Origin: an uncultured Verrucomicrobiae bacterium
Lineage (GTDB): Bacteria; Verrucomicrobiota; Verrucomicrobiia; Limisphaerales; JAFGQR01
Reading direction: 5' to 3'
Length of the DNA stretch: 33,811 bases
NCBI GenBank assembly: GCA_963788655.1
Contig: CAWBHS010000051.1
Coordinates: forward strand, 1-33,811
Shown piece by piece: positions 9,779 to 30,299 of the stretch. The notes under the pieces are model-generated. The model saw only the letters and a program-made list of their open reading frames with translations, searched no databases and had not been told where the DNA came from. The position numbers and the translations under genes are program-made. Numbering within the stretch: the first letter of the stretch is position 1; the number at the start of each line of letters is the position of its first letter.

Positions 9779-10271
9779 GGGACTCTCGGTGCTGTTGCGC
9801 TCATTCCGCTTACCCACCCTGGCGGCGATTTGGGAGGAGCGGGTCGCGCGAGCGGAGCGCGAGAACTGGGGCTACAAACGCTTGCTCCAGCATTTGTGTG
9901 AGAGCGCGGAACAGGATCGGCGCGAACGCAAGGTGCAGCGACTGCTCAAGGAATCCGGGCTGCCCGAGGGCAAGACGCTGGGCAACCTCGATGAAAAGCT
10001 TTTGCCGGCCAAACTTCGCCGGCTGATGCCCACGCTGCTGGAAGGCGACTTTGTTGAGCGAGCGGAGAACGTTTTAGCGTTCGGTCTTCCGGGCCGGGGC
10101 AAGACGCATTTTCTGGCCGTCGTGGGGCGCGCGTTGATCTTGCGCCACCGTTACCCGGTGCTCTTTACGCCGACGTTCAAACTGGTGCAGCAGTTGTTGG
10201 CCGCCAAGAAAGAGTTGCGTTTGGAACGCGAACTCAAACGGCTGGACCGATTTGCCGCGGTGATATTGGAT
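9768..10271 (+). pseudogene. istB: IS21 helper ATPase IstB, 5' part, interrupted by the RIT element
   Basis: Overlaps the istA 3' end; LRSFRLP, Walker A GLPGRGKTH; Walker B VILD is broken at 10271 and resumes as LDDLGY at 13848-13865. Confidence 0.92.
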
Positions 10272-10366
10272 TCATGTGAAGTGGTCAGTAATGTGGAGTA
10301 GTGGGGGCGATCACTGCGGCTGGCGCGGGTTCGGCTCGTGTTTTACTTCACATTATTGACAAGGGG
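10265..10366 (+). repeat. Left 102-bp inverted repeat of the RIT element
   Basis: Exact reverse complement of 13727-13828; contains TCATGTGAAG, TAATGTGGAG, CTTCACATTA and TTGACA. Confidence 0.95.
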
Positions 10367-10375
10367 TTTTGACGA

Positions 10376-11393
10376 TTATAGCGACTCCAGCCATTTGATC
10401 AGATTTTGATCTGATCGCCATCGCCCCGACTGACCGTTGCGCGCCAACATTGGTTTTGCCTTGGCCAAAGCTTCCCGTTTGGCCTCCAGATCAAGCGTGA
10501 TGTACTTATTAGTGGTGTTCACGCTCGCGTGTCCAAGCAAATGCGCAATAGTGCTTAAATCGACTCCCGATCGGAGGAGGTGAACCGCAGTGCTGTGACG
10601 CCAACTGTGCGGGTGAAGCCGCTTCTTTTTCAGTGTCGGGGTATGGCGGGCGGCTTGATGGACATGCTTTTGCAGTATCCAGCGGATCCCAAATCGGCTG
10701 AGCGGAAATCCCCGATGATTGCAGAACACACTGCGCTTTTCCTCGAGGCCGATGGCACGGCCCTCCAGATACTGCCGCAACGCCCGGACGGTTTCCGGCC
10801 AAAGGGGACAGACTCGCTCCTTTCGGCCTTTTCCTCGCAAGAGAACACTGGTCGGTGGGATTAAACGAAGATCACAGGCTTGTAACCCCACCACTTCACT
10901 GACGCGGGCACCGGTGTTGAACAACAGACTTAACAGCACAAAGTCGCGCTGACCTTCGCCGACCCGCTGGTCGATGCCCCGGAGCACCGCTTGGATTTCC
11001 GCACACTCCAGGTGCTGGATCTCGCGGGAAGCGGTGCATTTAAATGGGATACTCAGGAGGCGTTGAGTTTGCGCCAGGTGCTGGGGATAATGGGCCCCCA
11101 AATAGCGGAAGAAGCTGTGAATGGCACTCAAGTGTACATTGCGTGTGCGGGCCGCATTGTGGCGCTCGGTCTCCAGATGCTGCAAAAACGCAGTGACCTG
11201 CTCAACCGTCAACTGCTCGACGGCCAACTGACTGGGATCGGCCTTCTTCCCGGCGACAAATTGCAGCAGCAGCTTTAGGCTGTCTCGGTAGCTGGCAACC
11301 GTATGTGGGCTCATGGCTTTCTGCCGGGGCAAGTAGTCGGTAAAGAAGCCCCGTAAGGCAGACGCTAAGACGGTGATGGGGCCGATTTTTCAA
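10376..11393 (-). CDS. Tyrosine recombinase RitC-like; probable frameshift in the first codons
   Basis: SPHTVASYRDSL, NTGARVSE, GKGRKER, HSWRHS, LLGH, TTNKY; the frame extends upstream of TTG 11332 as KIGPITVLASALRGFFTDYL but is out of frame with the TTG at 11393. Confidence 0.9.
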
Positions 11394-12282
11394 TCGGCAC
11401 CTCCGTCGGCAAAGATGGGGAACGCGTACTGATGGAAGCGCCGGTTGGCGGCTTGTTGCAGCTCCGGCGTGAGGTGGAGATAGTGGTGCGTGGAAACCGG
11501 ATTAACATGGCCAAGATAAGTCGCCAAATGGGGCAGCTTGGTGTGGAGATTTGTGCCCGTTTTGTACCACCGCTCTAAAATGGCTACCGCGCAGCTGTGC
11601 CGGAGGTCATGGATTCGTGGGGGACGACCGCGTTCGTCTAGCCCCCCGGTGGCTAGACATAAGAACTGCCAATTGCCGGCGAGTGCGGAAGCACTATAGA
11701 CTTGGGTGGCAGCCACGGGATTATCGCTCCAGATGAGATAATCGTTGGGTTGGACCGCCAACCCTCGACGCCGTCGCAGTGCCCGATACCATTGTAAGGC
11801 TTGGGCGACGGATTTGGATAAAGGAACCAAGCGAGATTTGTGGAACTTGGTGGCTTCGATGCGGAGCAGGTCTTCCTGGAGATCGCAGTGGCGCCATTGC
11901 AGGCGCAACAACTCACCGCGCCGCAAGCCACAGCAAAACAACAGGAGCAATGCCAACCGAACGGTTTGAGGTCGAAGAGGATTTTGATGAGAGGCTGGCA
12001 ACTGATCGGCCGTGGCCAGCACCCGGGCCATCTCCGAGGCCGAGACCAGATATGGGGGACGATGCGGGCTGGGTTTGGGGAAGGTCGCCAAATCCGGGAT
12101 GAAGGTTTTCGGATGCTGGCGGGCATGGAAAAGCAGAAAGTTGCGCACGATCCGCAGGCGATTCCGGAGCACTGTCGGGTGGAGTTTGGTCAGGGTCTGC
12201 GACCAGTGGTAAAACATCTCGGAGCGGACTTGGCGCACCGAACCAAACTCACGATGCAGAAACTCATCCCACCGTCGGAGGA
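11390..12282 (-). CDS. Tyrosine recombinase RitB-like domain (probably the C-terminal half of a RitA-RitB fusion)
   Basis: CGLRRGEL, TKFHKSRLVP, HDLRHS, LPHLATYLGH, THHYL; its expected N-terminal helices lie in the tail of the upstream ORF. Confidence 0.88.
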
Positions 12283-13712
12283 CCGGTCTCTTCCCGGTCA
12301 TAGCGTCGGCCCAAAGCGCGACGGTTGGCCAGATAGAGCCGAAGGGAGTTCGCCAAGCTGCTGTGAAAATCCGCGCTGGTCAAGGGCAAGGCTCGCACGG
12401 GACCCACGCGGAGCAATTTGACGTTCCAACCGGCGGGTTCCAGCATGGCGGCGGTTCCACCTTGGGGCACGCCCAAGCCCACTTGACGCAGATCGTCGAC
12501 CGCCAAACGGAGATAAACGGTGGTGCTTTCTGGATCACGATGTCCCAGCACATCCCCGATGGCTCCGAGCGTAACTCCGCGGCGCAACAGGTGAACCGCC
12601 AGTGAATGGCGCAACGCATGCGTGCCCATCGGGGGAAGATCCAGACCGCTCTGGCCGATGCGATGCTCCAAAATATCATGCACGGCCGTGGGGGCTAACG
12701 GCCCCATCGGAGCTCGTCGCCGTAGGAACAGTTCGCGAAACGAACTGCGTGGGCGAGCGATTTTTAAGTAGCGCGTGAAAATATCCCCGGCTTCATCGGT
12801 CAAGGGCAGTCGGAGAACCTGCCGGGTCTTTGTTTGCGGGACTTGCAGGATACCCGCACGCCAATCAATGTCCTCCAATTTCAGTCGCACCAGCTCCCCG
12901 CTGCGCAAACCATACCGGGCCGCCATATACAACAGGGTGAAGTCACGCAGACCAGCCGGCTGTGAGCGGTCAATGGAGCGGAGCAGCGCAACGATCGGCT
13001 CCCAGGGCAACGCGCGCGGCAGTTGCTCCAGTCGGTAGGTGCGCGGGGTGTCGATCTGCTGATGTAACGGTTGTTTGATAACGCCTTGGGCATGCTGCCG
13101 CCGGAGAAAGCCACGTAACGAGGCGACGACGTGTGGGAGGCTAAACCGGTTGTTGGTTTTGGCCGCCTTGCGCAGAAAGGCCGCGATCCGGTCTGTCCGT
13201 AACCTGCGGATTACCGCAGGGTCTTGATCAAACTTCAGGAATCGCAGGAAGAACCGGAGGCGGTTCTGGTGCCCCGCGATAGTCGACTCCGCCATGCCGC
13301 GCACTTCTCGCAAATAAGTGCCGTAAGCTTGCAACTCCCGCTCCGAAGCCAGGAGCGGAGCGGCCTGGCCTTCGGGAATCAGTTGCTGATCTCGAAAGAA
13401 TCTTTCCACGGCGCGCGTCGTGCCGGCCACATCCGGACGACGTAAGCGAAACCAATCGTAGGCCGCACTCAAATCCAGTTGCGTGAGTCCCTTGAGGGCA
13501 GGTCCTCGGCGTCGTTTTAGCCAGCGGATCAGGCAACTGATCCCCTTGAGGTAATTACGGAGTGTCGACTCGGCGTATTCGTGGTGCCGAAGCCAAGTCA
13601 GCATATCGTCCAAGACCGGACCAATGACCGGCAGTTGACGATACCGGGACCGAGGCCCTGGAGGCATACGAAACTGTTTGCAAGGTAATATTGCTTTCAT
13701 TCCCGGCAGCAA
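12264..13712 (-). CDS. Tyrosine recombinase RitA-like with a C-terminal extension that is the RitB N-terminus
   Basis: LRDFTLL..YGLRSGEL, HALRHS, VLGH, TTVYL; continues without a stop into FHSSLANSLRLYLANRRALGRRYDREE. Start codon uncertain (13712, 13700 or 13667). Confidence 0.9.
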   Translation of the reverse strand: MLPGMKAILPCKQFRMPPGPRSRYRQLPVIGPVLDDMLTWLRHHEYAESTLRNYLKGISCLIRWLKRRRGPALKGLTQLDLSAAYDWFRLRRPDVAGTTRAVERFFRDQQLIPEGQAAPLLASERELQAYGTYLREVRGMAESTIAGHQNRLRFFLRFLKFDQDPAVIRRLRTDRIAAFLRKAAKTNNRFSLPHVVASLRGFLRRQHAQGVIKQPLHQQIDTPRTYRLEQLPRALPWEPIVALLRSIDRSQPAGLRDFTLLYMAARYGLRSGELVRLKLEDIDWRAGILQVPQTKTRQVLRLPLTDEAGDIFTRYLKIARPRSSFRELFLRRRAPMGPLAPTAVHDILEHRIGQSGLDLPPMGTHALRHSLAVHLLRRGVTLGAIGDVLGHRDPESTTVYLRLAVDDLRQVGLGVPQGGTAAMLEPAGWNVKLLRVGPVRALPLTSADFHSSLANSLRLYLANRRALGRRYDREETGPPTVG

Positions 13713-16294: not shown

Positions 16295-16720
16295 TCATCC
16301 CTGCGGGAATATCTGATAAAGCAGCAAGTAAATCACCACCCCTGTTACCGACACATACATCCACACTGGCCACGTCCAACGCGCAATCCGTTTGTGGCGG
16401 TCGAAGTGACCCCGAAGAGCGCGGAACAGGGTCACCATTACCAATGGGACAATCACCGCGGCCAGCACGGTGTGCGTGAGCAGGATCGCCAGGTAAATGG
16501 GGCGGAACCAGGTTGGGTCTTTAAATACCGTCCGTCCCGCCTGATAGTGATAAACCAGGTAACTCACCAGGAACAACGTGGAGGTTACCACAGCTCCGAG
16601 CATGCAGTTGCGATGGGCGGTTTGCCGGCCTCGGCGGATGAACACGAAACCCGCAGTAAGGAGAACTGCGCTCAGGGAATTGAGCGAGGCATTGACAATC
16701 GGTAGGTCGGCAATAGTCAT
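16295..16720 (-). CDS. DUF420 (YozB-like) membrane protein
   Basis: LPIVNASLN..AHRNCM..FLVSYLVYH..ILLTHTVLA..HKRIARWTWPVWMYVSVTGVVIY; typical companion of cox operons. Confidence 0.92.
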   Translation of the reverse strand: MTIADLPIVNASLNSLSAVLLTAGFVFIRRGRQTAHRNCMLGAVVTSTLFLVSYLVYHYQAGRTVFKDPTWFRPIYLAILLTHTVLAAVIVPLVMVTLFRALRGHFDRHKRIARWTWPVWMYVSVTGVVIYLLLYQIFPQG

Positions 16721-16814
16721 GGGCGGCAAGGTAGGAAGCTGGGTCAGGGGATAAATCCAACAGAAATCCGAAAGTCGAATACCCGAACACCCACCACAGC
16801 GTATGGCGTCGCTG

Positions 16815-17471
16815 TCATGAGGTCTCCTGCAAGAGCGCATGGATGGTTTGCAGCAGGCGCTTTTTCATGTTGGGTTCGTTGTATTCAAACACCCCGCGGG
16901 CGCGGCCCTTTTGGTCCACCACCACGAAATAGGTTGAGTGTACAAACAAATCGGCCGGCGTGGTGCGTTCTTCGGGTTGCTTCTTGGCCGCCACGAATTT
17001 GAATCCGTCAATCGCCAGGTTGGCGATGGCGTGGGGATCGCCGGTGAGAAACCACCACCGATTGAATTGGGCGCCGTAGCGTTCGCCGTATTTCTTGAGG
17101 ACGGCGGGCGTGTCGTATTCGGCATCGGTGGTGAGTGTGACCAATTTGACCGCCTGGTCGGAGGGCAGGGCCGCCTGAATCTCGCTCAGCCGCTGGGTCA
17201 TCAACGGGCACGGGCCAGCGCACCGGGTGAAGATAATGTCGGCTACCCACACGTGTCCGCGCAGGTCCGCCAGCGTGACCCGTTGGGAATTCTGATTAGT
17301 GAGCGCGAATTCCGGAATCGTGAAGAACACCGGCGGACGATGGAGCGTCTGCCGCCGCTGGTTGATGAGATACAGCGCACCAGCCAGGACGACGCCCGTC
17401 AGTAGCATCAGCACGACTCCCCAAAGGAGCAGCCCTACGGGGCGACTCGGATGATGGGTTGCATTTTCCAC
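16815..17471 (-). CDS. SCO1/SenC copper chaperone
   Basis: N-terminal TM; FALTNQN, IFTRCAGPCP (CxxxC), distal His in VHSTYFVVVD. Start uncertain (17471 or 17507). Confidence 0.93.
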   Translation of the reverse strand: MENATHHPSRPVGLLLWGVVLMLLTGVVLAGALYLINQRRQTLHRPPVFFTIPEFALTNQNSQRVTLADLRGHVWVADIIFTRCAGPCPLMTQRLSEIQAALPSDQAVKLVTLTTDAEYDTPAVLKKYGERYGAQFNRWWFLTGDPHAIANLAIDGFKFVAAKKQPEERTTPADLFVHSTYFVVVDQKGRARGVFEYNEPNMKKRLLQTIHALLQETS

Positions 17472-17539
17472 AACCTCAACGATAGGGATATCCCCGACGG
17501 AAAACAATTCCCAGATTCGTCCGGGCGATTGGCATCGCT

Positions 17540-18313
17540 TTATTCAAAGCCGTTGGCTCTGGGGGCGCCGACCTTGTCCGCGACCCACTGGTCGTACTCC
17601 TTCTGGGTGACCACCGTCAGGCGGCCGCGCATGCTATAATGTCCCAGTCCACAAAGCTGGGCGCAATTGATCGGCATCGAGCCGGTTTTGGTAGCGATGA
17701 AGTGGAGGGGCACACTCATGCCCGGAATGGCGTCCTGCGTAATGCGCAACGGCAGCACTTTGAAGCAATGAATGACATCCAGCGAGGAGACGTGGATAAT
17801 CACCGGTTTATTGACGGGGACTTTGAGATCGTTGACGACGACAAAATCATCAGCGCCCGCGGGATCGGTATTAGGGTCCAAAAAGCCAAACTTGTTTTCG
17901 GGCGTGGCCAGGCGCATTTCTCGCCGGCCAAAAACACCGTTGGTTCCGGGGTAAATCGCGTTCCAGGCGAATTGCTGGCCGATGACATGAATGACGACTG
18001 ATTCGTCCTCCGGGGGAAACTTGTCCACCGCCTTGGACCAAACCGGGATCGAGATACCCACGAGCAGGACGATTTCGAAAATAGCCACCGCGACTTCGAG
18101 ATAGCTGGAGAAGTGACTGGTAACGCCAACATGCTCGGCGCGGGGGTGCTTTGATTGGCGATAACGCCACAAGACAAAGAGGAAAAAAAGCGACCACCCG
18201 ACAAACAAGGCGCCCATCAGGAAATGCATTAACACCATTAAGCGGTCAACTGCAGCTCCGTTTTGGGAGGCTAATTCCGGGAGTCCGATCAGTTTCTCAA
18301 CAAAATGCATCAT
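17540..18313 (-). CDS. ctaC: Cytochrome c oxidase subunit II (no fused cytochrome c)
   Basis: Two TM helices; GQQFAW; CuA ligands DVIH..CAQLCGLGHYSM; QDAIPG. Confidence 0.95.
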   Translation of the reverse strand: MMHFVEKLIGLPELASQNGAAVDRLMVLMHFLMGALFVGWSLFFLFVLWRYRQSKHPRAEHVGVTSHFSSYLEVAVAIFEIVLLVGISIPVWSKAVDKFPPEDESVVIHVIGQQFAWNAIYPGTNGVFGRREMRLATPENKFGFLDPNTDPAGADDFVVVNDLKVPVNKPVIIHVSSLDVIHCFKVLPLRITQDAIPGMSVPLHFIATKTGSMPINCAQLCGLGHYSMRGRLTVVTQKEYDQWVADKVGAPRANGFE

Positions 18314-18314
18314 G

Positions 18315-18584
18315 TTAGCCTAGAATTTCAGAGGTCGGTTTATCTTTGGAATCTTCCGCGACCTCGGAGGATTTCCGTACCAGGTAAATTAAGAAAGCAG
18401 CAAACGATCCCAGAACAATAACCACGAAACCCAGGAGGGTGAAGATGCCCCAATTCATCCCCACGGCCAGTTGGGAGTCCGATTGTCCAAAACACGCCGC
18501 ACAGGCCAATACCGAACGAGGTAGCAACAAGCAGCTACTGCCCAGCAGCAACGTCACCGCTCTTGGAAAATTGCGTATCATCAT
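18315..18584 (-). CDS. Small membrane protein with CxxC after the signal peptide
   Basis: Signal-like N-terminus, ACAACFG, one TM helix; overlaps or abuts both neighbours. Confidence 0.8.
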   Translation of the reverse strand: MMIRNFPRAVTLLLGSSCLLLPRSVLACAACFGQSDSQLAVGMNWGIFTLLGFVVIVLGSFAAFLIYLVRKSSEVAEDSKDKPTSEILG

Positions 18585-18787
18585 TGGGAACTAATTTTCT
18601 TGAGCTTCTTAAAGACATAACGACCATAAAAAATCAGGCCAACCCCGACGGCAAGTGACACGAGACCGAATCCGAGATTCGACATCGCCTGGGTATCCCG
18701 ATATTGTGCCAATTCCCAAAACCCAAACCCAAACGCCAGTAGTGTGGAGGCAATAATAAAAACAATGTGGAATGTCCTCAGAGACAT
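18581..18787 (-). CDS. Small two-TM membrane protein in the cox cluster
   Basis: MSLRTFHIVFI..; two hydrophobic helices and a basic tail; 4-nt overlap with the next gene. Confidence 0.8.
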   Translation of the reverse strand: MSLRTFHIVFIIASTLLAFGFGFWELAQYRDTQAMSNLGFGLVSLAVGVGLIFYGRYVFKKLKKISSQ

Positions 18788-18790
18788 AAA

Positions 18791-19153
18791 CTAGTGGGCG
18801 GGAAGATTGGTTGCCGCACGGGACGGAGGCTGCGTGCCATAATAGGCGGTTCCGTGCGGCACTTGCTGGCGCGACAACACGGTGAGATACATCAAGGCCG
18901 TAAAGAAAATAACGGCAGCTATCAAGATGGTGTAAATGGCTTTGCGTTCCGAGATTAAATGCATGAAGAACCCGGCCACCAGGAAGCCTTTGACCGTGGC
19001 GATGAACAAGGCAATGGTTACCGTTACCGCCATGCTGGCAAAATGCACGTAATACATCGCGACCGTCAGGATCGTGCCGACGAGCAAGCCAATGAAGACG
19101 CAGATGTAAATTTTAACTTGCCGGGAGAGATCGTGAGGATGGGTATCTGCCAT
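18791..19153 (-). CDS. ctaF: Cytochrome c oxidase subunit IV (prokaryotic type)
   Basis: MADTHPHD..YICVFIGLLVGTILTV..IATVKGFLVAGFFMHL; three TM helices. Confidence 0.9.
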   Translation of the reverse strand: MADTHPHDLSRQVKIYICVFIGLLVGTILTVAMYYVHFASMAVTVTIALFIATVKGFLVAGFFMHLISERKAIYTILIAAVIFFTALMYLTVLSRQQVPHGTAYYGTQPPSRAATNLPAH

Positions 19154-19164
19154 AATCTTTCTTA

Positions 19165-19990
19165 TTAGAGAAGATATAACACCGGAAACAGAAAAATCCA
19201 AATCAGGTCCACAAAGTGCCAAAAGAGTCCGGACACCTCCACGCGATTGGTGAAGCGTTCCGGATCTGTCTGCCACATCTTCGACCCCGGCCCCCACAGG
19301 TAACCAATCACCAAGGCGCCACCCAACACGTGCAACGCGTGCAGGGCCGTCAGTGTGAAATACAGCGCAAAATAAGTACCTGTGAGCCGGAACAAACGCC
19401 GCGAGCCGCTTGACGTTGGAGGTTTCAATTTCCACCTTTGGCCCGTGCGCGCTGTGCTCGCTGCCGCCCTCCTGGCCCGGTTTGGGGCGATGGGGATCCG
19501 CGTAATGATGGGCGTCCGGATGAAAGACAATCCGTTCGAGCTTTTTGTCCTTGAGGGTTCGGGTATTCCAGAACCAGGGGTTACCTTCGATGTGGCCGGT
19601 CATGCGCCGACCATCGGTCAGCCATACTTCGTAATGTTTGAACTTTGCGCTGTATTCGTACGATTTAATGGACAAAAAGCCAAGGGCACACAACAGGGTG
19701 ATGGCCTGCACCTTTTTAAACCGGGCGAAGTTGTTCATTTTCAGCGCAGCCCAGGATAGCACGACCGTCACGCTGGAAGTGATGAGAACCGCCGTATTGA
19801 ACGTGCCAATCGGGATATTTAGCAGGCCCCGGGGCCAGGTTCCAGGATCGGCGCCAACCCGCAGCAGGATGTAACCGGAAAAGAGGGCGCCGAATAACAT
19901 GACTTCGGAGGCCAGGAACAACCAGATGCCCAGTTTGGCATTGTATAGACCGGTATCCCGACGCAGTTCGACAATGTAGGGAATATCCAT
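19165..19990 (-). CDS. ctaE: Cytochrome c oxidase subunit III; one frameshift near 19380
   Basis: LGIWLFLASEVMLFGALF, NTAVLITSSVT (frame from 19990) and YFALYFTLTALHALHV..GLFWHFVDLIWIFLFPVLYL (19165-19530); removing one G at CACAGGTACT gives PAHSTYF. Confidence 0.93.
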
Positions 19991-19996
19991 GAAAGA

Positions 19997-21856
19997 CTAG
20001 TGTTTGGGTGATTCGATCACCGCGTTCTGCGGCGTGAAATCGGTGGGTTGCCCCGGGAGGGAGTACTCATAAGGCCCGCGATGAATTTCCAGCGGTTGCG
20101 TGAAATTGCCGTGAGGCGGGGGGGTGGGGGTTTGCCATTCGAGCGTGGTGGCTCCCCATGGGTTGTTCGATTCGGCCTTGCGGCCGTGCCGAATGCTCCA
20201 AAAGAGATTGATGATAAACGGAATCTGGGCAACTCCCAAAAACCACGCGGCTACGGAAATCCATTCGTTGGCGTGAATCACGGTCGCGTTCAAGACCCCC
20301 ATCATGCCCGATGTGTTCGCTTCGTTATAGACCGAGTAGGAAATGCCTCCGTCCGCCATGCGGCGCGACATTCCCGCCATGCCTTGCAGGAACATGGGCT
20401 GGAAAATCAAGTTCATGAAAATAAACGAAAGCCAGAAATGCACCTTTCCCCAGTAGTCGTTCATGAACCGACCGGTCAGTTTGGGAAACCAATGATAAAT
20501 ACCCGCGAATAGCGCAAAGATCGTACCGGGTGCCACCACGTAGTGAAAATGGCCAATCACGTAATACGTGTCGTGCAAATGAATGTCGCTGACGCTGAGC
20601 CCCAACGGAAGCCCCGTCAAACCGCCGATACCGAACATGGGCAGAAAGGCCAGGGCAAACAACATTTGCGTGTTGAAACGGATGGAACCGCCCCACAGGG
20701 AAATAAACAGGCAGGTGAGAATGATGACCGAGGGGATGGAAATCAGCATGGTGGTGGTCTGGAAGAACGCACTGATTTTCGTGCCCATGCCGGTGAGATA
20801 CATGTGGTGAGCCCAAACGATGAAGGAGAGAAAGCCGATTGCCAGCGACGAATAGACGAGCGACTTGTAACCCCAAATCGGCTTGCGGATGTTATTCGTC
20901 AGCACTTCCGCCACGATTCCCATTGCGGGCAGGATCAAGACATAAACCTCGGGATGTCCGAGAAACCAAAACAAATGCTGCCACAGCAAGGGATTGCCCC
21001 CGCCGCTGAGGTGGGCTCCGCCAGAAACCGCCAAGCCCGTTGGCAGAAAGAAACTGGTTCCGAACACATTATCCATCAATTGCATTACCGCGGCCGCTTC
21101 CAGGGGCGGGAAGGCCAGCAATAGGAGAAACGAGGTGACAAACTGCGCCCAAACAAAAAAGGGCAGCCGCATCCAGGTCATGCCCGGCGCCCGGAGTTGA
21201 ATGACCGTGGCGATAAAATTGACGGAACCCAAGAGGGACGAGGTGATCAAGAAGACCATCCCGATGATCCACATCGTTTGGCCATTGATCGGATGCACCG
21301 TATCGGCCAGCGTGGCCAGCGGTGAATAGGACGTCCACCCTGACTTCGCCGCGCCCCCGGGAATAAAGAAACTGGACAGCATGATGACCCCACCCAGGAA
21401 ATAGCTTTGATAGCTGGCCATGTTGAGTCGGGGAAAGGCCATGTCCGGCGCGCCAATTTGCAGCGGCATTACGTAATTGCCAAACGCGGCAAATGCCAGC
21501 GGCACCACCGCCAAAAACACCATGATGGTGCCATGCATGGCGCCGAAGGCGTTATACAAGTCCGGCATGATGATCCCGCCGGCTGCCACGTCCTTGCCCA
21601 GCAAGGATTCCAACAGTGGACCGACCAACGGCACCGCGCGTCCGGGAAAGGCCAGTTGCCAACGCATCAGCATCATCAGAAAAAAACCGAACAGCATAAA
21701 CGACAGCGCGGTGATGCCGTATTGAACGCCGATCATTTTGTGATCGGTGGAGAAGATGTACGTCCGCCAGAAACTTGTGGGTTCGTGAACGTCGGCGTGA
21801 GCTTCCGGTAACTCGGCCACGCCGATGATGGGTTCTATCGCTCGTTCGTGATTCAA
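19997..21856 (-). CDS. ctaD: Cytochrome c oxidase subunit I, A1-type motif, atypical K-channel
   Basis: STDHKMIG, MHGTIM, APDMAFPRLN, WFLGHPEVY, VWAHHM, HDTYYVIGHFHY, GMSRR. Confidence 0.97.
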   Translation of the reverse strand: MNHERAIEPIIGVAELPEAHADVHEPTSFWRTYIFSTDHKMIGVQYGITALSFMLFGFFLMMLMRWQLAFPGRAVPLVGPLLESLLGKDVAAGGIIMPDLYNAFGAMHGTIMVFLAVVPLAFAAFGNYVMPLQIGAPDMAFPRLNMASYQSYFLGGVIMLSSFFIPGGAAKSGWTSYSPLATLADTVHPINGQTMWIIGMVFLITSSLLGSVNFIATVIQLRAPGMTWMRLPFFVWAQFVTSFLLLLAFPPLEAAAVMQLMDNVFGTSFFLPTGLAVSGGAHLSGGGNPLLWQHLFWFLGHPEVYVLILPAMGIVAEVLTNNIRKPIWGYKSLVYSSLAIGFLSFIVWAHHMYLTGMGTKISAFFQTTTMLISIPSVIILTCLFISLWGGSIRFNTQMLFALAFLPMFGIGGLTGLPLGLSVSDIHLHDTYYVIGHFHYVVAPGTIFALFAGIYHWFPKLTGRFMNDYWGKVHFWLSFIFMNLIFQPMFLQGMAGMSRRMADGGISYSVYNEANTSGMMGVLNATVIHANEWISVAAWFLGVAQIPFIINLFWSIRHGRKAESNNPWGATTLEWQTPTPPPHGNFTQPLEIHRGPYEYSLPGQPTDFTPQNAVIESPKH

Positions 21857-21938: not shown

Positions 21939-22844
21939 TTAGAGTTTCGCCTTGTCCAATACCAGTACGCCGAACAAGAGCGGCAGATAAAGAATGGACA
22001 TCCAAAACAGCCGGCGGGACAGCGGTAACGTGAGCTGACGCGCGAACTGTGCCGCCGTCCCGGCAAAAGCCAATCCCAGAATCAAAGCGCTTACGAGATA
22101 GGGCAGACCGGCCGTGCCGAAGAAGACGGGCACCAGGCTGACCGGAATCAACAAGCTCGCAAAGACTACTGCCCACCGGCCCGTCAGTTTGCCCGTCTCA
22201 TCGTGAACCGATAACATTTTAAATCCGGCTTTTTGGTAATCGTTACGATAGAGCCAGGCAATTGCCAGAAAGTGTGGAATCTGCCAACAAAATTGGATGG
22301 CGAACAGTGAAGCGGCTTCCCAGGTGATCGCATTTCGAGCGGCGACCCAGCCCATTAACGGCGGCAACGCGCCCGGAACGGCGCCCACCACGGTGTTCAA
22401 CCAAGTCACGCGCTTGAGCGGGGTGTAAATGAATAGGTAAATGAACCATGTCAGGCCTCCCAGCAAACCGGTCATCGGATTGACCAGCACCGTTAGGTAA
22501 CCCAAACCCAACGCCGAGCTGATCGCGCCAAATGCCAGCACGGTTTCCGGCTGCACTTGACCGGCGGGCAAAGGTCGGCTCTGCGTGCGGGCCATGCGGG
22601 CATCGAGATCTCGTTCCAGAAGCTGGTTCAAGGCCGCCGCGCCGCCGGCAATGAGGCCCGTGCCCATCAACAAGTGCAACATCAGGGCAAAATCCACCCC
22701 GCCCAAGCTGCCCAGATAAAAGCCCATCGAGGCGGTCAACAACACCAGAAAGGTCAGCCGCGCCTTGACCAAGTCGGCGTAGATCGAGATCCAGGATCGT
22801 TCGGTGACCGCGGCGGCACTGAGGGTGTCGGCGGTGGCTTTCAT
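21939..22844 (-). CDS. ctaB: Protoheme IX farnesyltransferase (heme O synthase)
   Basis: LNQLLERDLDARMARTQSRPLP, YTPLKR, GAVPGALPPLMGW, WQIPHF. Confidence 0.96.
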   Translation of the reverse strand: MKATADTLSAAAVTERSWISIYADLVKARLTFLVLLTASMGFYLGSLGGVDFALMLHLLMGTGLIAGGAAALNQLLERDLDARMARTQSRPLPAGQVQPETVLAFGAISSALGLGYLTVLVNPMTGLLGGLTWFIYLFIYTPLKRVTWLNTVVGAVPGALPPLMGWVAARNAITWEAASLFAIQFCWQIPHFLAIAWLYRNDYQKAGFKMLSVHDETGKLTGRWAVVFASLLIPVSLVPVFFGTAGLPYLVSALILGLAFAGTAAQFARQLTLPLSRRLFWMSILYLPLLFGVLVLDKAKL

Positions 22845-22857
22845 GCGAGAATAGTCT

Positions 22858-23925
22858 TCATGCGGGTAATTGATACTGATTACTGCCGGCATCGGCCTGC
22901 GGTTCGGTCATCCTATTGGCGACGAATGAGGTTGCCGGCGACGGATGACACTGCCGCGCGCGCAACCACAAGAACACTCCGACGACCAACGACGAGGCCC
23001 CCACGGCTACGTGCAGCGTGGCGATGTCGGCCGATTTATTGGTCCATACCGTGGCGGCACCCAGGCACACTTGCACGACAATCAGTCCCAGCCACAGCAG
23101 CGCGGTGCGCGGCAGTCCGCTTTGCCGGTCGGCGTTTTGGAAGGTCCAACGGACGGACAAAAACACGCCCACTAGAATGCATAGCGCCACCAGACGATGG
23201 ATCATGTGCAGAACCACTTGGAAAGCGGTGATGGGATTCAGCGCCATCAGTTCATTGCGACTTTCGTTGTAATGCTCGATGGCAGCCGGTGAGACGTCCG
23301 GCCAGACTTTGCCATAGGCCAGTGGGAAATCCGGGACCGCCAGCCCCGCGTGTTGATGACGCATCGTCGCGCCAATGATCAATTGCAGCAGGATGATCCC
23401 GGCGGTTACGCCGTAAGCCAGACGCAATTTGCTGGCGTGAGTAATTTCCGGCCGATTGGCCGTGAGTTTCCGCCAATTCGGTGAGGTGACCAAAGCGATG
23501 GCGCTCATGAGTACCAGGAACAACTGTGCCAGCGTCGCGTGAAAAATCCCCAGCGAGTCCATCATTTCCGTTACGCGCAGCCCGCCTAACACGCCTTGAA
23601 CGATCACCAGCAACACCGCCACAATGCCCAACCAGCGAAGCCAGCGCCGTGATTCTTTCAACCAAAGCCAGACGGCCAAAATGATGGTCAGCATACCGGC
23701 CACCGAAGCCACCAGCCGGTGGGTGTGTTCGTAGAATACGCCGCCCGTCCACAGGGAAATGGGAAAGAAGAACATGTTGTACCCATACGTCGTGGGCCAA
23801 TCCGGCACCGCCATGCCGGCGCCATGGCTGGTCACCAATCCTCCGACGCATACCAGCGCCAGGGTCCACAGCGCGACGCCGATCGCAAACCAGTGCAGGC
23901 CGCGGTGGTAGGCGTTACTCCTCAT
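22858..23925 (-). CDS. ctaA: Heme A synthase (COX15/CtaA family)
   Basis: GGLVTSHGAGMAVPDWP, EHTHR, QGVLGGLRV, GIFHA, HMIHR, ATLHV. Confidence 0.93.
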   Translation of the reverse strand: MRSNAYHRGLHWFAIGVALWTLALVCVGGLVTSHGAGMAVPDWPTTYGYNMFFFPISLWTGGVFYEHTHRLVASVAGMLTIILAVWLWLKESRRWLRWLGIVAVLLVIVQGVLGGLRVTEMMDSLGIFHATLAQLFLVLMSAIALVTSPNWRKLTANRPEITHASKLRLAYGVTAGIILLQLIIGATMRHQHAGLAVPDFPLAYGKVWPDVSPAAIEHYNESRNELMALNPITAFQVVLHMIHRLVALCILVGVFLSVRWTFQNADRQSGLPRTALLWLGLIVVQVCLGAATVWTNKSADIATLHVAVGASSLVVGVFLWLRARQCHPSPATSFVANRMTEPQADAGSNQYQLPA

Positions 23926-24026: not shown

Positions 24027-24737
24027 TTATTTGCGCTTGGGGGGTTCGAACGTGAAATTGATTTGTTTCGTGTCATCCGCGCCGACGGTGATTTCCTGGG
24101 TCTGCTTGCCCGCCTTCAAATGATAGGCCTCGATCGTATATTTGCCCGCCGGCAGATTGGAAATCTTGTAATGACCTTCCTGGTCAGTCACGGAAAAGAA
24201 CGGATGATCCACGACCCCCACGTAAGCGAACATCCATATATGGACGTCGCACTTGAACTTCACCATCACTTCCTGATGGTCAAAGACCTTGGTGCTGGTC
24301 TGGCCTTTGACCACCTGGGCCAGATTGAAGCGCTGGTTCTTGTTGGCCTGGCAATCCACGTTGTGCAAAAATGGATCCGAATTCACAATCTTCAGCGGTT
24401 GCCCTGTCTGAATGCCCTGTACGTAGGGAACGTATTCGCAACCTTTTTGGTCCAATTCGGCCGGCTTGGTCGGAGGATCGTACTTGCCGGTAACCCCTTT
24501 CTTGATCCACACAAATACGTTGGCCAGCCCGCCGTCCGGACTTACCACGTAATGCCGGGTCGTAATCTTCTCCGGCTGAACTTTGCTGCACTTTTCATCC
24601 AACGGAATGGGGATTTCGGGCGGCGGAGTTCCGCGGAGTGTGACTTTGCCGGTAAGCTCCGCGCCAATGGCTGGTGGCAAAACAGTGATCACTGCCAGCA
24701 CCGCCAGCAGCCGGATTTTCTTCGTAGTTACAATCAT
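24027..24737 (-). CDS. Exported protein with cupredoxin-like core and carboxypeptidase-regulatory-like (Ig-fold) C-terminus
   Basis: Signal peptide; LDQKGCEYVP, NSDPFLHNV, KCDVHIWM (candidate Cu ligands H..C..H..M), TDQEGHYKISNLPAGKYTI. Confidence 0.8.
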   Translation of the reverse strand: MIVTTKKIRLLAVLAVITVLPPAIGAELTGKVTLRGTPPPEIPIPLDEKCSKVQPEKITTRHYVVSPDGGLANVFVWIKKGVTGKYDPPTKPAELDQKGCEYVPYVQGIQTGQPLKIVNSDPFLHNVDCQANKNQRFNLAQVVKGQTSTKVFDHQEVMVKFKCDVHIWMFAYVGVVDHPFFSVTDQEGHYKISNLPAGKYTIEAYHLKAGKQTQEITVGADDTKQINFTFEPPKRK

Positions 24738-24934
24738 GTCTCGTATTAAAAAACGTGGTGCAAAGTTAGCAAACCCCCCACCGGCTTGCAAGTGGTTTTA
24801 ACCAAGATTAATACAGAGCATGGAATATTCTCCGGCGGTACGCCGACCGGAGTGCGTTTTTCGCGAACTATTGGCGGTTTTTTTGCCGTGAAAGAAAGTC
24901 GATGCGAGCGCGGCTGCCGAACCGCGCACCGCGC

Positions 24935-25201: not shown

Positions 25202-25705
25202 CTATCGGTCCGTGCGGCGGCGAGGCGCGGTGCCGTCAGGCAACGTTGCCATGACCCTTGCCATGGTCACTGCGGTATGGGCGGCTTCGGTCCCGCGATT
25301 GTGGGCCGGATCCAAACATCGTTCGACAGCTTGTTGCTGATTTTCCAGAAGCAGCACCTCGTGAATGACCGGGATCCCGTGTTGCACCTGAATCTGCATC
25401 AGCGCTTGACTGACCGCTTCGCCGATGTGCTGGGCGTGCGTGGTGGCCCCGCGAATAATCACGCCCAGGCAGATCATCGCCGCGAACGGTTTTCCGGTAG
25501 CCTGCGCCAATCGGCCGGCCACCACCGGGATTTCAAACGCACCTGGCACGCGGATGACCGTCACCTCCGCTGCGCCGGCGCGGTTCAATTCCGCCTTGGC
25601 CGCGCGCAACATGGCGTCCACGTAGCGGGCATTGTATTTGGAGGCGACAATGGCAAACCGGCCGCCTTGGACACCCTTGACCGTGGTTTTGACTTTTCGG
25701 AGCAT
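25202..25705 (-). CDS. ribH: 6,7-dimethyl-8-ribityllumazine synthase
   Basis: FAIVASKYN, VPGAFEIP, CLGVIIRGATTH, NRGTEAA; directly downstream of ribBA. Confidence 0.95.
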   Translation of the reverse strand: MLRKVKTTVKGVQGGRFAIVASKYNARYVDAMLRAAKAELNRAGAAEVTVIRVPGAFEIPVVAGRLAQATGKPFAAMICLGVIIRGATTHAQHIGEAVSQALMQIQVQHGIPVIHEVLLLENQQQAVERCLDPAHNRGTEAAHTAVTMARVMATLPDGTAPRRRTDR

Positions 25706-25750
25706 GATTATGAATGAGCGAATTTGAGAGGCATTACCGTCCCACCGAGA

Positions 25751-26951
25751 CTAAATGAGATGGCCCAGTTTACGGCGCTTGGTATCGAGGTATTTGCGAT
25801 TGTGCGGATTGGGTTTGACGCGGATGGGCTCCTGCTTGGTCACGATCAAACCGTAGCCCTCCAGGCCCACGATCTTCTTGGGATTGTTCGTCAGCAAACG
25901 GATGGTTTTCAGCCCCAAATCAACCAGGATTTGTGCTCCGAGGCCGTATTCGCGCAGGTCCATTTTGTAGCCCAGTTTCAAATTGGCCTCCACCGTGTCG
26001 TAGCCCAGTTCCTGCAACTTGTAAGCCTGGATTTTTGGCGCCAAACCGATGCCCCGGCCTTCCTGCCGCATGTACAGAATAACGCCCGCTCCTTCCTTGG
26101 AAATCTGGCGCATGGCCTGATGCAGTTGCGCGCCGCAGTCACAGCGTCGGGAACCGAACACGTCGCCGGTAAGGCATTCGCTATGGACCCGCACCAACAC
26201 GTCCTTTTTACTGGCTACCTCGCCTTTCACCAGGGCCAGGTGATACTGGTTGTCCACCGTGGAAAGATACAAGTGCAGGTTGAAGTCGCCGTAATCGGTG
26301 GGCAGCTTGACCACTTCAATCATCTGAACCAGCTTCTCCCGCGTGCGGCGATACTTGATCAACTCTTCGATGGCAAAGATCTTCAACTTGTGCCGCCGGG
26401 CGAACCGCCGCAATTCGGGCAGCCGCGCCATGGAACCGTCTTCGCTGAGAACTTCGCAAATCACGCCGATGGGACGGGCGCCCGCCAACGTGACCAAATC
26501 AACGGCCGCCTCCGTATGGCCGGCTCGTTGCAACACCCCGCCCAGCTTGGCTTGCAGCGGAAACACATGGCCCGGTTGCACCAGGTCTTCGGGGACGGCG
26601 GTGGGCTTGGCCATAACCTGGATGGTGCGGGCCCGGTCGGCGGCACTGATCCCGGTGGTAATGCCTTCCGCCGCATCCACGCTGACCTGAAAATCGGTTT
26701 TGAAGGTTTCCCGGTTCTGCACCACCATGCGTTCGACCCCGAGTTGCTTGAGCCGCTCGGCGGTGGTCGGCACGCAGATCAAACCGCGACCGTATTTCGC
26801 CATGAAATTGATGGCCTGCGGCGTGGCGTATTGGCCCGCCATGATCAAGTCGCCTTCATTCTCGCGGTCCGCGTCATCCACCACGATGCACCATCTTGCC
26901 TTGCTGCAAGTCGGCTACCACGGACTCAATGGAATCAAATTTCTTCTTCAT
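25751..26951 (-). CDS. ribBA: Bifunctional DHBP synthase / GTP cyclohydrolase II; frameshift near 26889
   Basis: DDADRENEGD, GITTGISAADR, RAGHTEA, RVHSECLTGDVFGSRRCDCG, QEGRGIGL, TNNPKK; the N-terminus MKKKFDSIESVVADLQQGKMV from ATG 26951 is one base out of frame. Confidence 0.96.
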
Positions 26952-28023: not shown

Positions 28024-29086
28024 GTGCGCAAATTGAACATCAACCTTCTGGAACTCGAGGGTGCGTTCGTGACGAACTTTCCCGAATCGCACTATTACCT
28101 GGACTTGGAAACCGGCGAGATGCTGATGGTGCAGGATGAATTCCGCGCGATCACTGGAGCGGTTGATGGCTGAAGCCGGGGCCGAGGCGGACGTGGAAAC
28201 CGTCGTCCGCCAATCCGACCTCCCCGGTTGGCAACAACAAGCCGTGCTCATGCTGCACCGCGTCGATGAAGATTACGGGGAGCGCATCGTAGCGGTGCCT
28301 TCCTCGACGGAGCCGGGCGAGAATTATCGTGTCATGCAGGATTTCATTGCCACGCTCAGCGACCCGCAGCTTAAGGAGTCCCTGACCCGCGCCATCCAGG
28401 GCAGGGGAGCGTTCGGCCGGTTTCGAAGCGTCTTGGGTCGCCATTTCCATGCCCGCGAGCAATTCCAGGCCTTCCAACAAAGCCGGGAGCGGGAACGCGT
28501 GTTGACTTGGCTGACCTCCTTGGACATCGAACCCGAAGATACGTCGCCCACGCTGGCGGTGACTGGTTCATTGCGACCGGCCGTGCGGCCCCATTTGCTG
28601 GAAGGAGTGCTAATGTTCGTGCGGGAAGCGGCCCGCTTGGAAGGTGTCGAACGTATTGCCCTGTTCGGCTCGCTGGCCACGGACGCGCCTTCGCCCGAAG
28701 ATGCCGACGTACTGGTGAGCATTCGAGACGACGTGCCGCTGTCGCCGTTGGCACGTGTGGCCCGAAGATTGAACGCGCACACCATGCATCTCGGGCGTGC
28801 CGGCAAGGTCTTTCTCGCCGATCCCCAAGGTCAGTATCTCGGCCGTACCTGTCCTTGGAAACAATGCGAGCCGAATTTGCACTTCGATTGCCTCGCTTTG
28901 CACTGCGGGCAACGCCAGTACCTTTACGACGATTTGAACAACATCACCCTTGCGGCTTCCACCATCCAAACGCCGCCCCTGGAACTGTGGCCGGCAGTCC
29001 GCGTGCGCGAGACAGCGCCGGAGGACGTCGAGCAATTCTTGTTGGCCCCGTTGCGAGTGGACGGTTCCGCCAAGCCTCAAGGTTGA
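28024..29086 (+). CDS. UPF0158-family domain fused to a minimal nucleotidyltransferase with Cys-rich tail; frameshift near 28146
   Basis: GTG 28024 frame: LELEGAF..YYLDLETGEML; ORF 28136: YRVMQDFI..AIQGRGAFGRFRSVL (UPF0158), LFGSLAT..PEDADVLV (Pol-beta NTase GS/DxD), GRTCPWKQC..DCLALHCG. Confidence 0.8.
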
Positions 29087-29099
29087 GAAAGAAACCTTT

Positions 29100-30299
29100 A
29101 TGAAACTACCCAAGCTACTTGCGGAGGAATTCCAGCAGAAACGGGGGCATGCGCCGTTGGTGGCAGTGCGCTCCATGTATGATCTTCAGGGAGCGCTTGG
29201 CGAAACATACGTGGCGGCCGATGCGGAGGGCGCGGTGCTATTTGGCCGCACCATCGGCGGTTCGCGGGAGACACGTGTTTTGGCCTGGTCGGAAGTCCGG
29301 CAGGCAACGGTGCAAACCGAACAAGTGTTCGCTTTCCTGGAACTGCACCTGCCAACCGGCCCTGTTCGGTTGCAATTTTCCGGTTGGGACGCCCCGCGGT
29401 TGCGTCAGGTTGTCGAATTGTGGCGGGCCCATCAAGCGCCCGCTGCCACGACCACTTCGGCGGCATTGGCCGCGCCAGCAATCGCCGTGAGCCCGCCGCC
29501 GCAATTCCTTCCGGCGGTCACGCCGTTGGCCGCGTTCTGCGCCGGCATTCATGCCATGATCGAGTGTGATGGCCGTCTCGAACCGGCGGAACTGAATTTC
29601 CTTTCGCAGCGAATTCCCGACGCAAAAGCCATTCTGGAGGGGCATCAGTTTCTTCGCCAACACGGGATAAATACCTTGTGCCAGTGCGTGAATGCGGTTT
29701 TAAACGACGCTCAAAAACGATGCCTCTGGGCCAACCTCGTTGCGGTGGCGATGGTGGACGGTCTCTTGCAAAGCACCGAGCAGGAACTGCTGGAGCGTTT
29801 CCAGTCCGCACTCACCATTCCGGAGGAGGAGAAGCAAACCGTCTTCGAAGTGCTCATGGCCAAGAACAACTTGGCCGTCTTTGCCTCCGACGAAGGCGCC
29901 GCCGCGCTGGCGGATTCGGATGGGTTGACACCGTTGATGGCCTATTGCGCGGCGTTGCGGGCGATGATGGAAGCCGACCAGGACAGATCCCCGCGAGAGG
30001 AAGAATTACTCGTATCAACCGTCCCTTACCCGGAGGACATCCGGTTGGGGCAGGACTATTTGCAGGCTTACGATGTGGACCATCTGCTGGGTCGGTTGGC
30101 TTCGGTTTTGAACCACTCCCAACGGCTTTGTCTCGCAGCCAACCTGATCGCGTTGGCCATGGTTGATGGCGTCATCCACGGCTCCGAGCAGGAATTGCTG
30201 CATCGCTTCCAGCAAGCCATGGAGCTATCCGACGCGGACTATGTCCGGCTTTATGGGACGCTGCTGCTGAAAAACAGCTTTTCAATTTTTGGAAGCTGA
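29100..30299 (+). CDS. Protein with an N-terminal beta-rich domain and two tandem TerB-like domains
   Basis: Internal duplication: TPLAAFCAGIHAMIECDG..AEL..LWANLVAVAMVDGLLQSTEQELLERFQ..KNNLAVF and TPLMAYCAALRAMMEADQ..REE..LAANLIALAMVDGVIHGSEQELLHRFQ..KNSFSIF. Confidence 0.82.
   Translation: MKLPKLLAEEFQQKRGHAPLVAVRSMYDLQGALGETYVAADAEGAVLFGRTIGGSRETRVLAWSEVRQATVQTEQVFAFLELHLPTGPVRLQFSGWDAPRLRQVVELWRAHQAPAATTTSAALAAPAIAVSPPPQFLPAVTPLAAFCAGIHAMIECDGRLEPAELNFLSQRIPDAKAILEGHQFLRQHGINTLCQCVNAVLNDAQKRCLWANLVAVAMVDGLLQSTEQELLERFQSALTIPEEEKQTVFEVLMAKNNLAVFASDEGAAALADSDGLTPLMAYCAALRAMMEADQDRSPREEELLVSTVPYPEDIRLGQDYLQAYDVDHLLGRLASVLNHSQRLCLAANLIALAMVDGVIHGSEQELLHRFQQAMELSDADYVRLYGTLLLKNSFSIFGS

Follow-up and report, generated by a model that had tools for sequence, protein, structure and literature searches.

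How an A-family heme-copper oxidase could work without the lysine of its K-channel is the question raised by a cox1/ctaD gene in a 33,811-nucleotide stretch of DNA (the window) from an uncultured Verrucomicrobiae bacterium (assembly GCA_963788655.1, contig CAWBHS010000051.1). The need for two proton channels in A-family enzymes and the part played by the K-channel lysine are long-standing questions that have been approached mostly through inactive mutants, and exchange of the lysine for methionine (K362M or K354M) leads to a near-total loss of turnover. The importance of the residue is documented by mutation studies (in sources that include preprint 10.64898/2026.01.22.701106), and in the canonical route reductive-phase protons reach the Tyr from a glutamate of subunit II by way of Ser, Lys and Thr (PMC8361435). 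The answer favored here, from comparison of sequences and with roughly even confidence, is a working aa3-type O2 reductase in which the K-channel would be rerouted through a second glutamate of subunit II, Glu80(II). In the clade to which the gene belongs, evolution has produced a natural enzyme that lacks the lysine, is abundant and appears to dominate; the clade also bears on how respiration is annotated in Verrucomicrobia and Acidobacteria that are common in soil and water. Since two carriers, Methylacidiphilum fumariolicum SolV and Rubritalea marina DSM 17716 (locus L044), have been cultured, a structure, a proton-to-electron ratio and mutants of Glu80(II) are within reach. The interest of the clade is tempered by the facts that loss of the lysine has already been catalogued, that other lysine-less lineages exist and that the mechanism is one that we infer.

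Subunit I without the K-channel lysine

The features of the gene on which the argument depends are the following, with equivalent residues given for Paracoccus denitrificans (Pd), R. sphaeroides (Rs) and the bovine enzyme.

19997..21856, minus strand: cox1/ctaD, encoding an A1-type heme-copper oxidase subunit I of 619 amino acids (PF00115, 1e-132); the TTG start is uncertain
20720..20722, minus strand: Ile379 at the K-channel lysine site (Pd K354, Rs K362, bovine K319), by alignment to 1AR1_A
20909..20911, minus strand: Ala316 at Pd S291 (Rs S299), by alignment to 1AR1_A
20942..20956, minus strand: HPEVY, with the CuB ligand His301, the D-channel Glu303 and the cross-link Tyr305, present in 62/62 clade sequences
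20711..20761, minus strand: remodeled helix VIII (Q366, T368, T369, S373, S376, V377, I379, T381, C382), relative to lysine-bearing sequences
21098..21100, minus strand: Glu253 in helix V (Pd A239), a position newly acidic in the clade
20528..20641, minus strand: new prolines in helices IX-X (P406, P417, A442-P443), from the comparison of the clade with lysine-bearing sequences

The closest PDB match of the 619-residue protein is P. denitrificans CoxI (1AR1_A, 9e-116 by phmmer), and the alignment is gap-free from helix VI through helix XI with an offset of 25. It equates I379 with K354, A316 with S291, S376 with T351, V377 with G352 and C382 with S357. The original prediction of Ile at codon 20720-20722 and of Ala at the site of bovine S255 (codon 20909-20911) is confirmed by this alignment. 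The Ser that it reported in place of bovine T316 (Pd T351) is also present but is an ordinary state, as it occurs in 27 of 92 lysine-bearing sequences. These 92 sequences were compared with 62 sequences of the clade, which were grouped by P417 in agreement with the tree described below; the count for P417 itself is circular because that residue served to define the group. Position 379 is Ile in 44 and Leu in 18 of the clade sequences and Lys in none, and Ser at position 316 is found in 5/62 clade sequences versus 90/92 of the lysine-bearing ones. No lysine stands elsewhere in register, either in the gap-free alignment or in the 62 clade sequences. Lys and Arg residues within helices V-X of the clade occur at helix ends only (positions 331, 389 and 459), so the lysine has not moved to another register.

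The rest of the catalytic machinery is intact, as had been predicted for the heme and CuB histidines, the cross-link Tyr, bovine E242, the D-channel and the arginine pair. The protein keeps H108, H301, E303, Y305, H350, H351, H436 and H438, as well as D138, N127, N145, N213, H428-D429 and R498-R499, and all metal ligands, the D-channel and R498/R499 are conserved in 61-62 of the 62 clade sequences. The six His ligands and the helix VI residues of the His-Tyr cross-link, which characterize the A-family, are present in 62/62, and the D-channel set of that family (D124, N131, N113, N199 and the Ser ladder) is present as well. The motif LGHPEVY conforms to XGHPEVY with Glu, which defines the A1 subfamily (PMC8361435). 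The protein departs from canonical two-channel A1 enzymes in that Lys354, Ser291, Thr351 and Ser357 are replaced by Ile, Ala, Ser and Cys, which leaves the subunit II glutamate and a hydroxyl at 351 as the sole remaining elements of the canonical K-channel. Matches to NCBIfam TIGR02891 (583 bits) and TIGR02866 (130.5 bits) fall under the respective cut-offs of 670.75 and 147.7. Membership in the B-family is contradicted by the intact D-channel and by non-polar residues at positions 312, 316 and 379, while a NO reductase, which would lack the cross-link Tyr and have a Glu/Gln ligand to FeB, is contradicted by the invariant Tyr305. An aa3 type, with heme A at both sites, would fit the adjacent ctaA and ctaB genes and Arg65, which is kept and which we take to be the formyl-binding residue of heme A.

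Around the missing lysine the subunit has been remodeled. Helix VIII of the clade has S373 in 62/62, V377 in 60/62, Q366 in 60/62 and Thr or Ser at 381 in 62/62, whereas the lysine-bearing sequences have Ala at 373 (85/92), Gly or Ala at 377 (91/92) and Phe at 381 (88/92). A ladder formed by S373, S376 and T369 is invariant in the clade, and the positions of S291, G352, K354 and S357 in the old helix VI/VIII lumen have all turned non-polar or bulkier. Position 253 is Glu in 59 and Gln in 3 of the 62 clade sequences and Ala in 65/92 lysine-bearing ones; Q259 is a further clade-specific state. An AlphaFold2 model of subunit I, made from a 20-sequence alignment, reached a pLDDT of 53.8 and a pTM of 0.55, which ruled out its use in a search by fold.

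A second glutamate in subunit II and the proposed proton route

The partner subunit is encoded downstream on the same strand, and its changes carry most of the case for rerouting.

17540..18313, minus strand: cox2, encoding a CuA subunit II of 257 amino acids (PF00116), which aligns to 1M56_B
18095..18097, minus strand: Glu73(II), the K-channel entry Glu (Rs E101), retained in a gap-free helix alignment
18074..18076, minus strand: Glu80(II) in place of Rs P108, candidate substitute for the lysine, from the subunit II alignment
18194..18226, minus strand: changes in helix 1 of subunit II, His30 and Gly39-Trp40 (Rs F71-V72), numbered via the 1M56_B alignment
17657..17659, minus strand: Gln219(II) in the CuA motif CxQLC (Rs E254), by alignment to 1M56_B

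Subunit II has the His/Cys/Cys/His/Met set of a CuA site and no fused cytochrome c, a C-terminal CxxCH being found in 0/52 clade loci. Helix 2 aligns gap-free to R. sphaeroides 1M56_B, and it could be aligned in 52 of 53 clade sequences and in 21 lysine-bearing controls. The entry Glu is kept in 51/52 aligned clade subunits II. The position of Rs P108 is Glu in 52/52 of these and Pro in 21/21 controls, and Rs W104 is replaced by Val or Ile in all 52; the 21 controls all keep E101, W104, T105 and P108. In helix 1, His30 is found in 48, Gly39 in 46 and Trp40 in 51 of the 52 aligned sequences. Rs E254, which is presumably the subunit II Glu ligand of the Mg/Mn site, is Gln in 51/51 aligned sequences. 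The Mg site, which had been described as intact, is therefore so on the side of subunit I (the HD pair) but not on that of subunit II, where the Glu ligand is Gln219.

The middle of the canonical K route is thus non-polar in the clade while both of its ends are kept. Retention of the entry Glu is unusual among enzymes of this kind: it is found in 51/52 clade sequences versus 4 of the 36 lysine-less bacterial rows in Table 3 of PMC8239418 (our count). Glu80(II) lies seven residues above Glu73(II) on the same face of the helix, 10.5 Å away by helix geometry, and the difference in height between E101 and K362 is about 11-13 Å as estimated from PMC9687966. A transient cavity that follows the heme a3 farnesyl tail from subunit II to Y288 has been described, and it is lined by F71, V72 and V107 of subunit II and by I363 and F391 (PMC4256069). 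These residues map to G39, W40, F79 (which adjoins E80), L380 and F408, and so coincide with or adjoin the subunit II changes of the clade. Rerouting is favored because the entry Glu is kept, the new Glu80(II) would stand at a similar height and the lining of the farnesyl-tail cavity falls at these changes.

In the proposed mechanism, reductive-phase protons would enter from the cytoplasm at Glu73(II) and move to Glu80(II), a buried residue predicted to lie at the depth of the lysine, which it would replace as proton relay. From there they would cross the cavity that separates the subunit II helices from helices VIII-IX next to the farnesyl tail of heme a3, and reach the cross-linked Tyr305 by way of Ser373/Ser376. 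The old helix VI/VIII lumen (S291, K354, S357) is filled with non-polar residues, and the intact D-channel would pump protons.

The main rival is a working O2 reductase in which the K side is sealed and the D-channel alone carries both chemical and pumped protons. E80(II), H30(II) and W40(II) would then have a structural role or serve to bind the tail of heme a3, with Glu253 assisting the D-route or the reductive phase. The filling of the old lumen at S291, G352, K354 and S357 and the invariance of the D-channel in the clade both agree with this explanation, and since 32 of the 36 lysine-less rows in Table 3 of PMC8239418 lose the entry Glu too, the K route looks dispensable. A D-channel-only enzyme is nevertheless somewhat unlikely, as it accounts neither for the pair of glutamates that share a face of helix 2 in subunit II and are kept in 51-52 of 52 sequences, nor for the invariant S373/S376/T369 ladder. 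The original prediction left the mechanism open, and it is mainly through subunit II that the evidence now leans to the rerouted channel over the D-channel alone.

A widespread clade under purifying selection

A rival explanation is that the missing lysine reflects a decaying gene or a lesion of one strain. The redundant lysine-bearing paralogs of the source genome and a frameshift in the neighboring subunit III gene fit this explanation.

19165..19990, minus strand: cox3, frameshifted, with two PF00510 matches in different frames (tblastn frames -1 and -2)

The frameshift is a one-base event near 19380-19390, after which the first half runs into the cox4 frame, whereas cox3 is a single open reading frame (ORF) in 52/53 related loci. 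The accessory operon, which had been put forward as intact and as an argument against decay, is thus not intact in the window. The defect is likely an indel error of the assembly because several other genes are also split across frames, namely those for ActC and ActD (contigs C88 and C110) and a NOR-like match on C11. Among the 120 best matches to the subunit I protein (74-84% identical, the window's own protein included), the helix VIII motif P-S-V-I-[I/V] is common to 120/120, and no close relative reads PTGVK or PSAIK. Decay is barely credible for the window and is refuted for the clade as a whole by this shared motif and by the low dN/dS values given below.

The clade was found in 56 of 80 GTDB loci by its helix VIII type, 23 others having the Lys and one (L056) another lysine-less motif. 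By record label, the 55 classed clade loci include 33 from Verrucomicrobiota, 9 from Acidobacteriota, 3 from Fidelibacterota, 3 from Planctomycetota and 7 with single labels; about 10 phylum labels are spanned, some of which look misbinned. Of the 71 genomes sampled from the window's order, 61 carry a member (64-80% identity, 3 partial) and 7 carry another A-family type (38-47% identity). A sample across the phylum, which served only to find clade members, gave matches in 42 of 151 genomes and none in the rest. In a midpoint-rooted FastTree phylogeny of 118 of 191 well-covered sequences (241 aligned), the clade is monophyletic with a support of 1.0 and a long stem. Support for its sister group is poor (0.65, 0.43), and we therefore make no claim about which event came first. 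Thirty-three other lysine-less sequences fall outside the clade, and other lysine-less groups are placed elsewhere in the tree.

The eight closest clade pairs have dN/dS ratios of 0.04-0.13, and those of lysine-bearing pairs are no lower; the terms for the window and L002 are 0.129/1.42. For pairs with pS<0.6 the median is 0.24 in the clade (415/1953 pairs) and 0.33 in lysine-bearing sequences (17/325 pairs), but the close pairs are relied upon because medians over all pairs are inflated by saturation and GC bias. No relaxed selection is seen, and the lysine-less clade is widespread and under purifying selection, in keeping with the suggestion that the gene encodes a natural, selected oxidase without the Lys.

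Loss of the lysine with the fingerprint of this clade has already been catalogued. An A1 'KC channel' group without Lys is listed in Tables S1 and S3 of PMC8239418 and comprises Elusimicrobia, Ca. Calescamantes and Methylacidiphilaceae. By our mapping of the columns, the window reads Y-A-I-S-C-E-G-L-S-S versus Y-A-I-S-C-E-G-I-S-S for Elusimicrobia GWA2_38_7, while the Methylacidiphilum row (Y-G-L-S-V-E-S-F-S-S-E) is identical to SolV MFUM_v2_0387. The clade matches the group in its 11-position fingerprint and in kinship with Methylacidiphilum, since L081 and L088, which have the Methylacidiphilum helix VI/VIII fingerprint, nest in the clade; Elusimicrobia and Calescamantes are linked through their listing in these tables. 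Three taxa and a cbb3-like channel are described in the accessible parts of PMC8239418, where neither the second Glu of subunit II nor Glu253 nor the breadth of the clade is mentioned.

That published classing of matching fingerprints supports a further explanation, in which protons would use a helix VII 'KC channel' like that of cbb3 enzymes, as classed by Degli Esposti et al. in 2021, and E317 and S344 are indeed found in 60/62 and 58/62 clade sequences. These states are not diagnostic because they are frequent in lysine-bearing enzymes (E317 in 38/92, S336 in 31/92 and S344 in 31/92). The C-family residues Tyr227, Ser240, Ser244, His247 and Tyr255 of helices VI-VII read E, G, M/L, S/A/G and S in the clade, so that the functional residues of the channel are missing and a KC channel is very improbable.

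Two observations concern other losses. Unrelated lysine-less A-family groups (L056; P0133 and subsets of P0197-P0269) have helix VIII motifs such as PFAII and PSGVQ. In a deep sub-branch of the clade (P0122, P0125 and P0131), D124/N131 are replaced by S-S, A-H and R-S while E278 and Y280 are kept; these enzymes are without both channel entrances.

Evidence for a working O2 reductase

Enzymes of the clade very probably reduce O2, judging from their residues and from the genomes that carry them. Fifteen genomes were picked that have a clade-type match and at most two PF00115 matches each. The clade-type oxidase is lysine-less in 15/15. In 13/15 the second PF00115 match is CcoN-like and lacks the His residues of the active site; in G266 it bears the ligands and in one genome it is absent. 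A search for bd oxidase in the 15 gave one partial match (G210). The clade enzyme is the only ligand-intact O2-reductase candidate found, with no bd oxidase detected, in 13/15 of these genomes, which are 92-97% complete and related to one another.

In a methane chemostat of M. fumariolicum SolV, MFUM_v2_0387 was transcribed at a mean of 264 transcripts per million (TPM), compared with 81 and 16 TPM for ba3 genes, 71 for a second lysine-less copy and 36 for the 'CcoN' (PMC10205796, supplement 4). MFUM_v2_0387 is a clade-type protein and the most highly transcribed of the five SolV genes of the oxidase subunit I type. Respiration that is insensitive to sulfide, attributed by the authors to ba3, amounts to 3% of that with methanol (PMC10205796). 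In the SolV proteome the 'CcoN' is without active-site histidines and both WAHH motifs belong to lysine-less copies; a GPHH motif was not found in the proteome text, where line breaks could hide one. We infer that the lysine-less enzyme carries most of SolV respiration. The second lysine-less cox1 stands alone (L082:5865-7781; SolV MFUM_v2_2181, transcribed at 71-128 TPM), with no cox2 or cox3 match within the 15-kb locus L082.

Alternatively, the clade could have a changed job, as a non-pumping or low-stoichiometry oxidase or as an enzyme with a preference for a different substrate or ion (NO, peroxide or Na+). The Gln at the Mg-site Glu of subunit II, the new prolines in helices IX-X and the new Glu in helix V would agree with a change of this kind, and Lys mutants of model enzymes keep peroxidase-type turnover. 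Such a change is distinctly unlikely, as the pump elements are intact, no other intact oxidase candidate was found in 13 of the picked genomes, no NOR-type Glu stands at Tyr305, and the invariant His-Tyr/CuB site is one that marks O2 reductases (PMC11214002).

The CcoN-like gene without active-site His codons stands beside genes for alternative complex III (ACIII), ccoO and a cytochrome c gene (L044:4893-6353, L111-L123, C110:123042-124436 and MFUM_v2_0384), and in L044 and SolV it is directly upstream of the lysine-less oxidase operon. It has been counted as a cbb3 oxidase in verrucomicrobial methanotrophs (PMC8498564). The product is possibly a scaffold that links ACIII to the lysine-less oxidase. 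In a tentative overall picture, held with somewhat less than even confidence, Limisphaerales-type Verrucomicrobia and Methylacidiphilum would respire mainly through the oxidase of this clade, whose relay would have moved from Lys in subunit I to Glu in subunit II via the heme a3-tail cavity as a second evolutionary answer to the K-channel, and the 'cbb3' on the ACIII side would be a His-less scaffold rather than an oxidase.

Several points weigh against a working oxidase with Glu80(II) as its relay. The charge behavior of Glu is opposite to that of Lys, which may act by charge compensation. The orientation of E80 rests on prediction, the sole finished model being the one with a pLDDT of 53.8, and Glu253 in helix V is unexplained by the proposed route. 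One clade amounts to one evolutionary event, so loss of the Lys and gain of the Glu are not a replicated covariation. The lysine-less lineage L056 keeps Pro at the E80 site, and together with the 33 lysine-less sequences outside the clade this indicates that A-family enzymes can lose the Lys without Glu80 as a remedy. L047 is without the entry Glu, and Elusimicrobia GWA2_38_7, which matches at 9/10 subunit I positions, has Thr there (PMC8239418). The case from SolV rests on transcripts and not on activity, and the ba3 assignment is the inference of its authors. The source genome also has an A1 oxidase (PTGIK, C58), an A2 oxidase (PSAIK, C88) and a bd oxidase, and cox3 is frameshifted in this assembly.

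Comparison with known oxidases

The clade resembles canonical aa3 oxidases (1AR1 and R. sphaeroides 1M56) in its ligands, HPEVY, D-channel, arginine pair and CuA subunit II with entry Glu, and subunits III and IV and ctaA, ctaB and sco are also present. It differs from them in lacking K354, S291 and S357, in the subunit II changes of W104, T105 and P108 to V, A and E and of E254 to Q, and in Glu253, the helix IX-X prolines and the gene order cox1-cox3-cox4-orf-orf-cox2. B-family ba3 of T. thermophilus likewise has no helix VIII Lys but is only a weak match (E ~1e-6). Unlike ba3, which has a Thr/Tyr K-analog where the clade is non-polar, the clade keeps the D-channel.

The 'aa3-type' oxidase of SolV (MFUM_v2_0387-0392) belongs to the clade, shares the order of its genes and carries E-x6-E and CGQLC in its subunit II. 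It is treated as an ordinary aa3 oxidase, with no mention of purification or of the missing Lys, in the accessible parts of PMC8498564 and PMC10205796. K354 is likewise absent from other A-family enzymes, namely the Acidithiobacillus rus-operon Cox, the CyoCAB subclade and the F. straubiae COX, which are separate lineages according to their published classing and mostly lack the entry Glu. A K-less COX, the consequence of which is called unclear, is reported in a 2026 preprint (10.64898/2026.01.22.701106). In the literature covered, from which subscription journals were mostly absent, neither a biochemical or structural study of the clade nor any mention of the second Glu in subunit II was found, and the enzyme is apparently uncharacterized.

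Operon, neighboring genes and source genome

Loci of the clade usually run cox1-cox3-cox4-two small ORFs-cox2 and have ctaA, ctaB, sco and a DUF420 gene close by; the remaining genes of this set in the window are listed below together with one upstream gene.

18791..19153, minus strand: cox4, caa3-type subunit IV (PF03626, TIGR02229)
18315..18787, minus strand: two small membrane ORFs (68 and 89 amino acids) in the cox4/cox2 interval, with no NCBIfam or Pfam match
21939..22892, minus strand: ctaB, heme O synthase (PF01040; TIGR01473 over its cut-off)
22858..23925, minus strand: ctaA, heme A synthase (PF02628)
16295..17507, minus strand: assembly genes SCO1/SenC (16815-17507) and DUF420 (16295-16840), by profile matches
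24027..24791, minus strand: exported protein with HN...C-x2-H-x2-M, annotated only as carboxypeptidase-regulatory-like

The motif of the exported protein is present in 27/27 homologs, all of which adjoin a lysine-less cox1. A PDB search with it gave only non-significant matches, among them a blue-copper protein (E 0.38), and the motif suggests that the product is likely a type-1 copper electron donor or carrier. Electrons would likely pass from ACIII through a cytochrome c or this type-1-copper-like protein to CuA. The source genome (G000; 86% complete, 5.6% contamination) has one ACIII cluster on C88 and another on C110, and the C110 cluster includes the His-less CcoN-like gene. Homologs of the 68- and 89-residue ORFs were found in 39/90 and 31/90 loci, respectively. 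The 89-residue ORF carries a CxxC (CAAC, or CGIC in SolV MFUM_v2_0391) and possibly encodes a copper-handling factor, judging from this motif.

Elsewhere in the window, an alpha-L-fucosidase gene is split over two frames (1581-3061), ribH and ribBA lie at 25202-26884, UPF0158/DUF6932 and TerB-domain genes lie at 28136-30299, and IS21-like transposase and IstB pieces stand at 8675-13712 beside three tandem tyrosine-recombinase genes, an arrangement that we take to be RIT-like.

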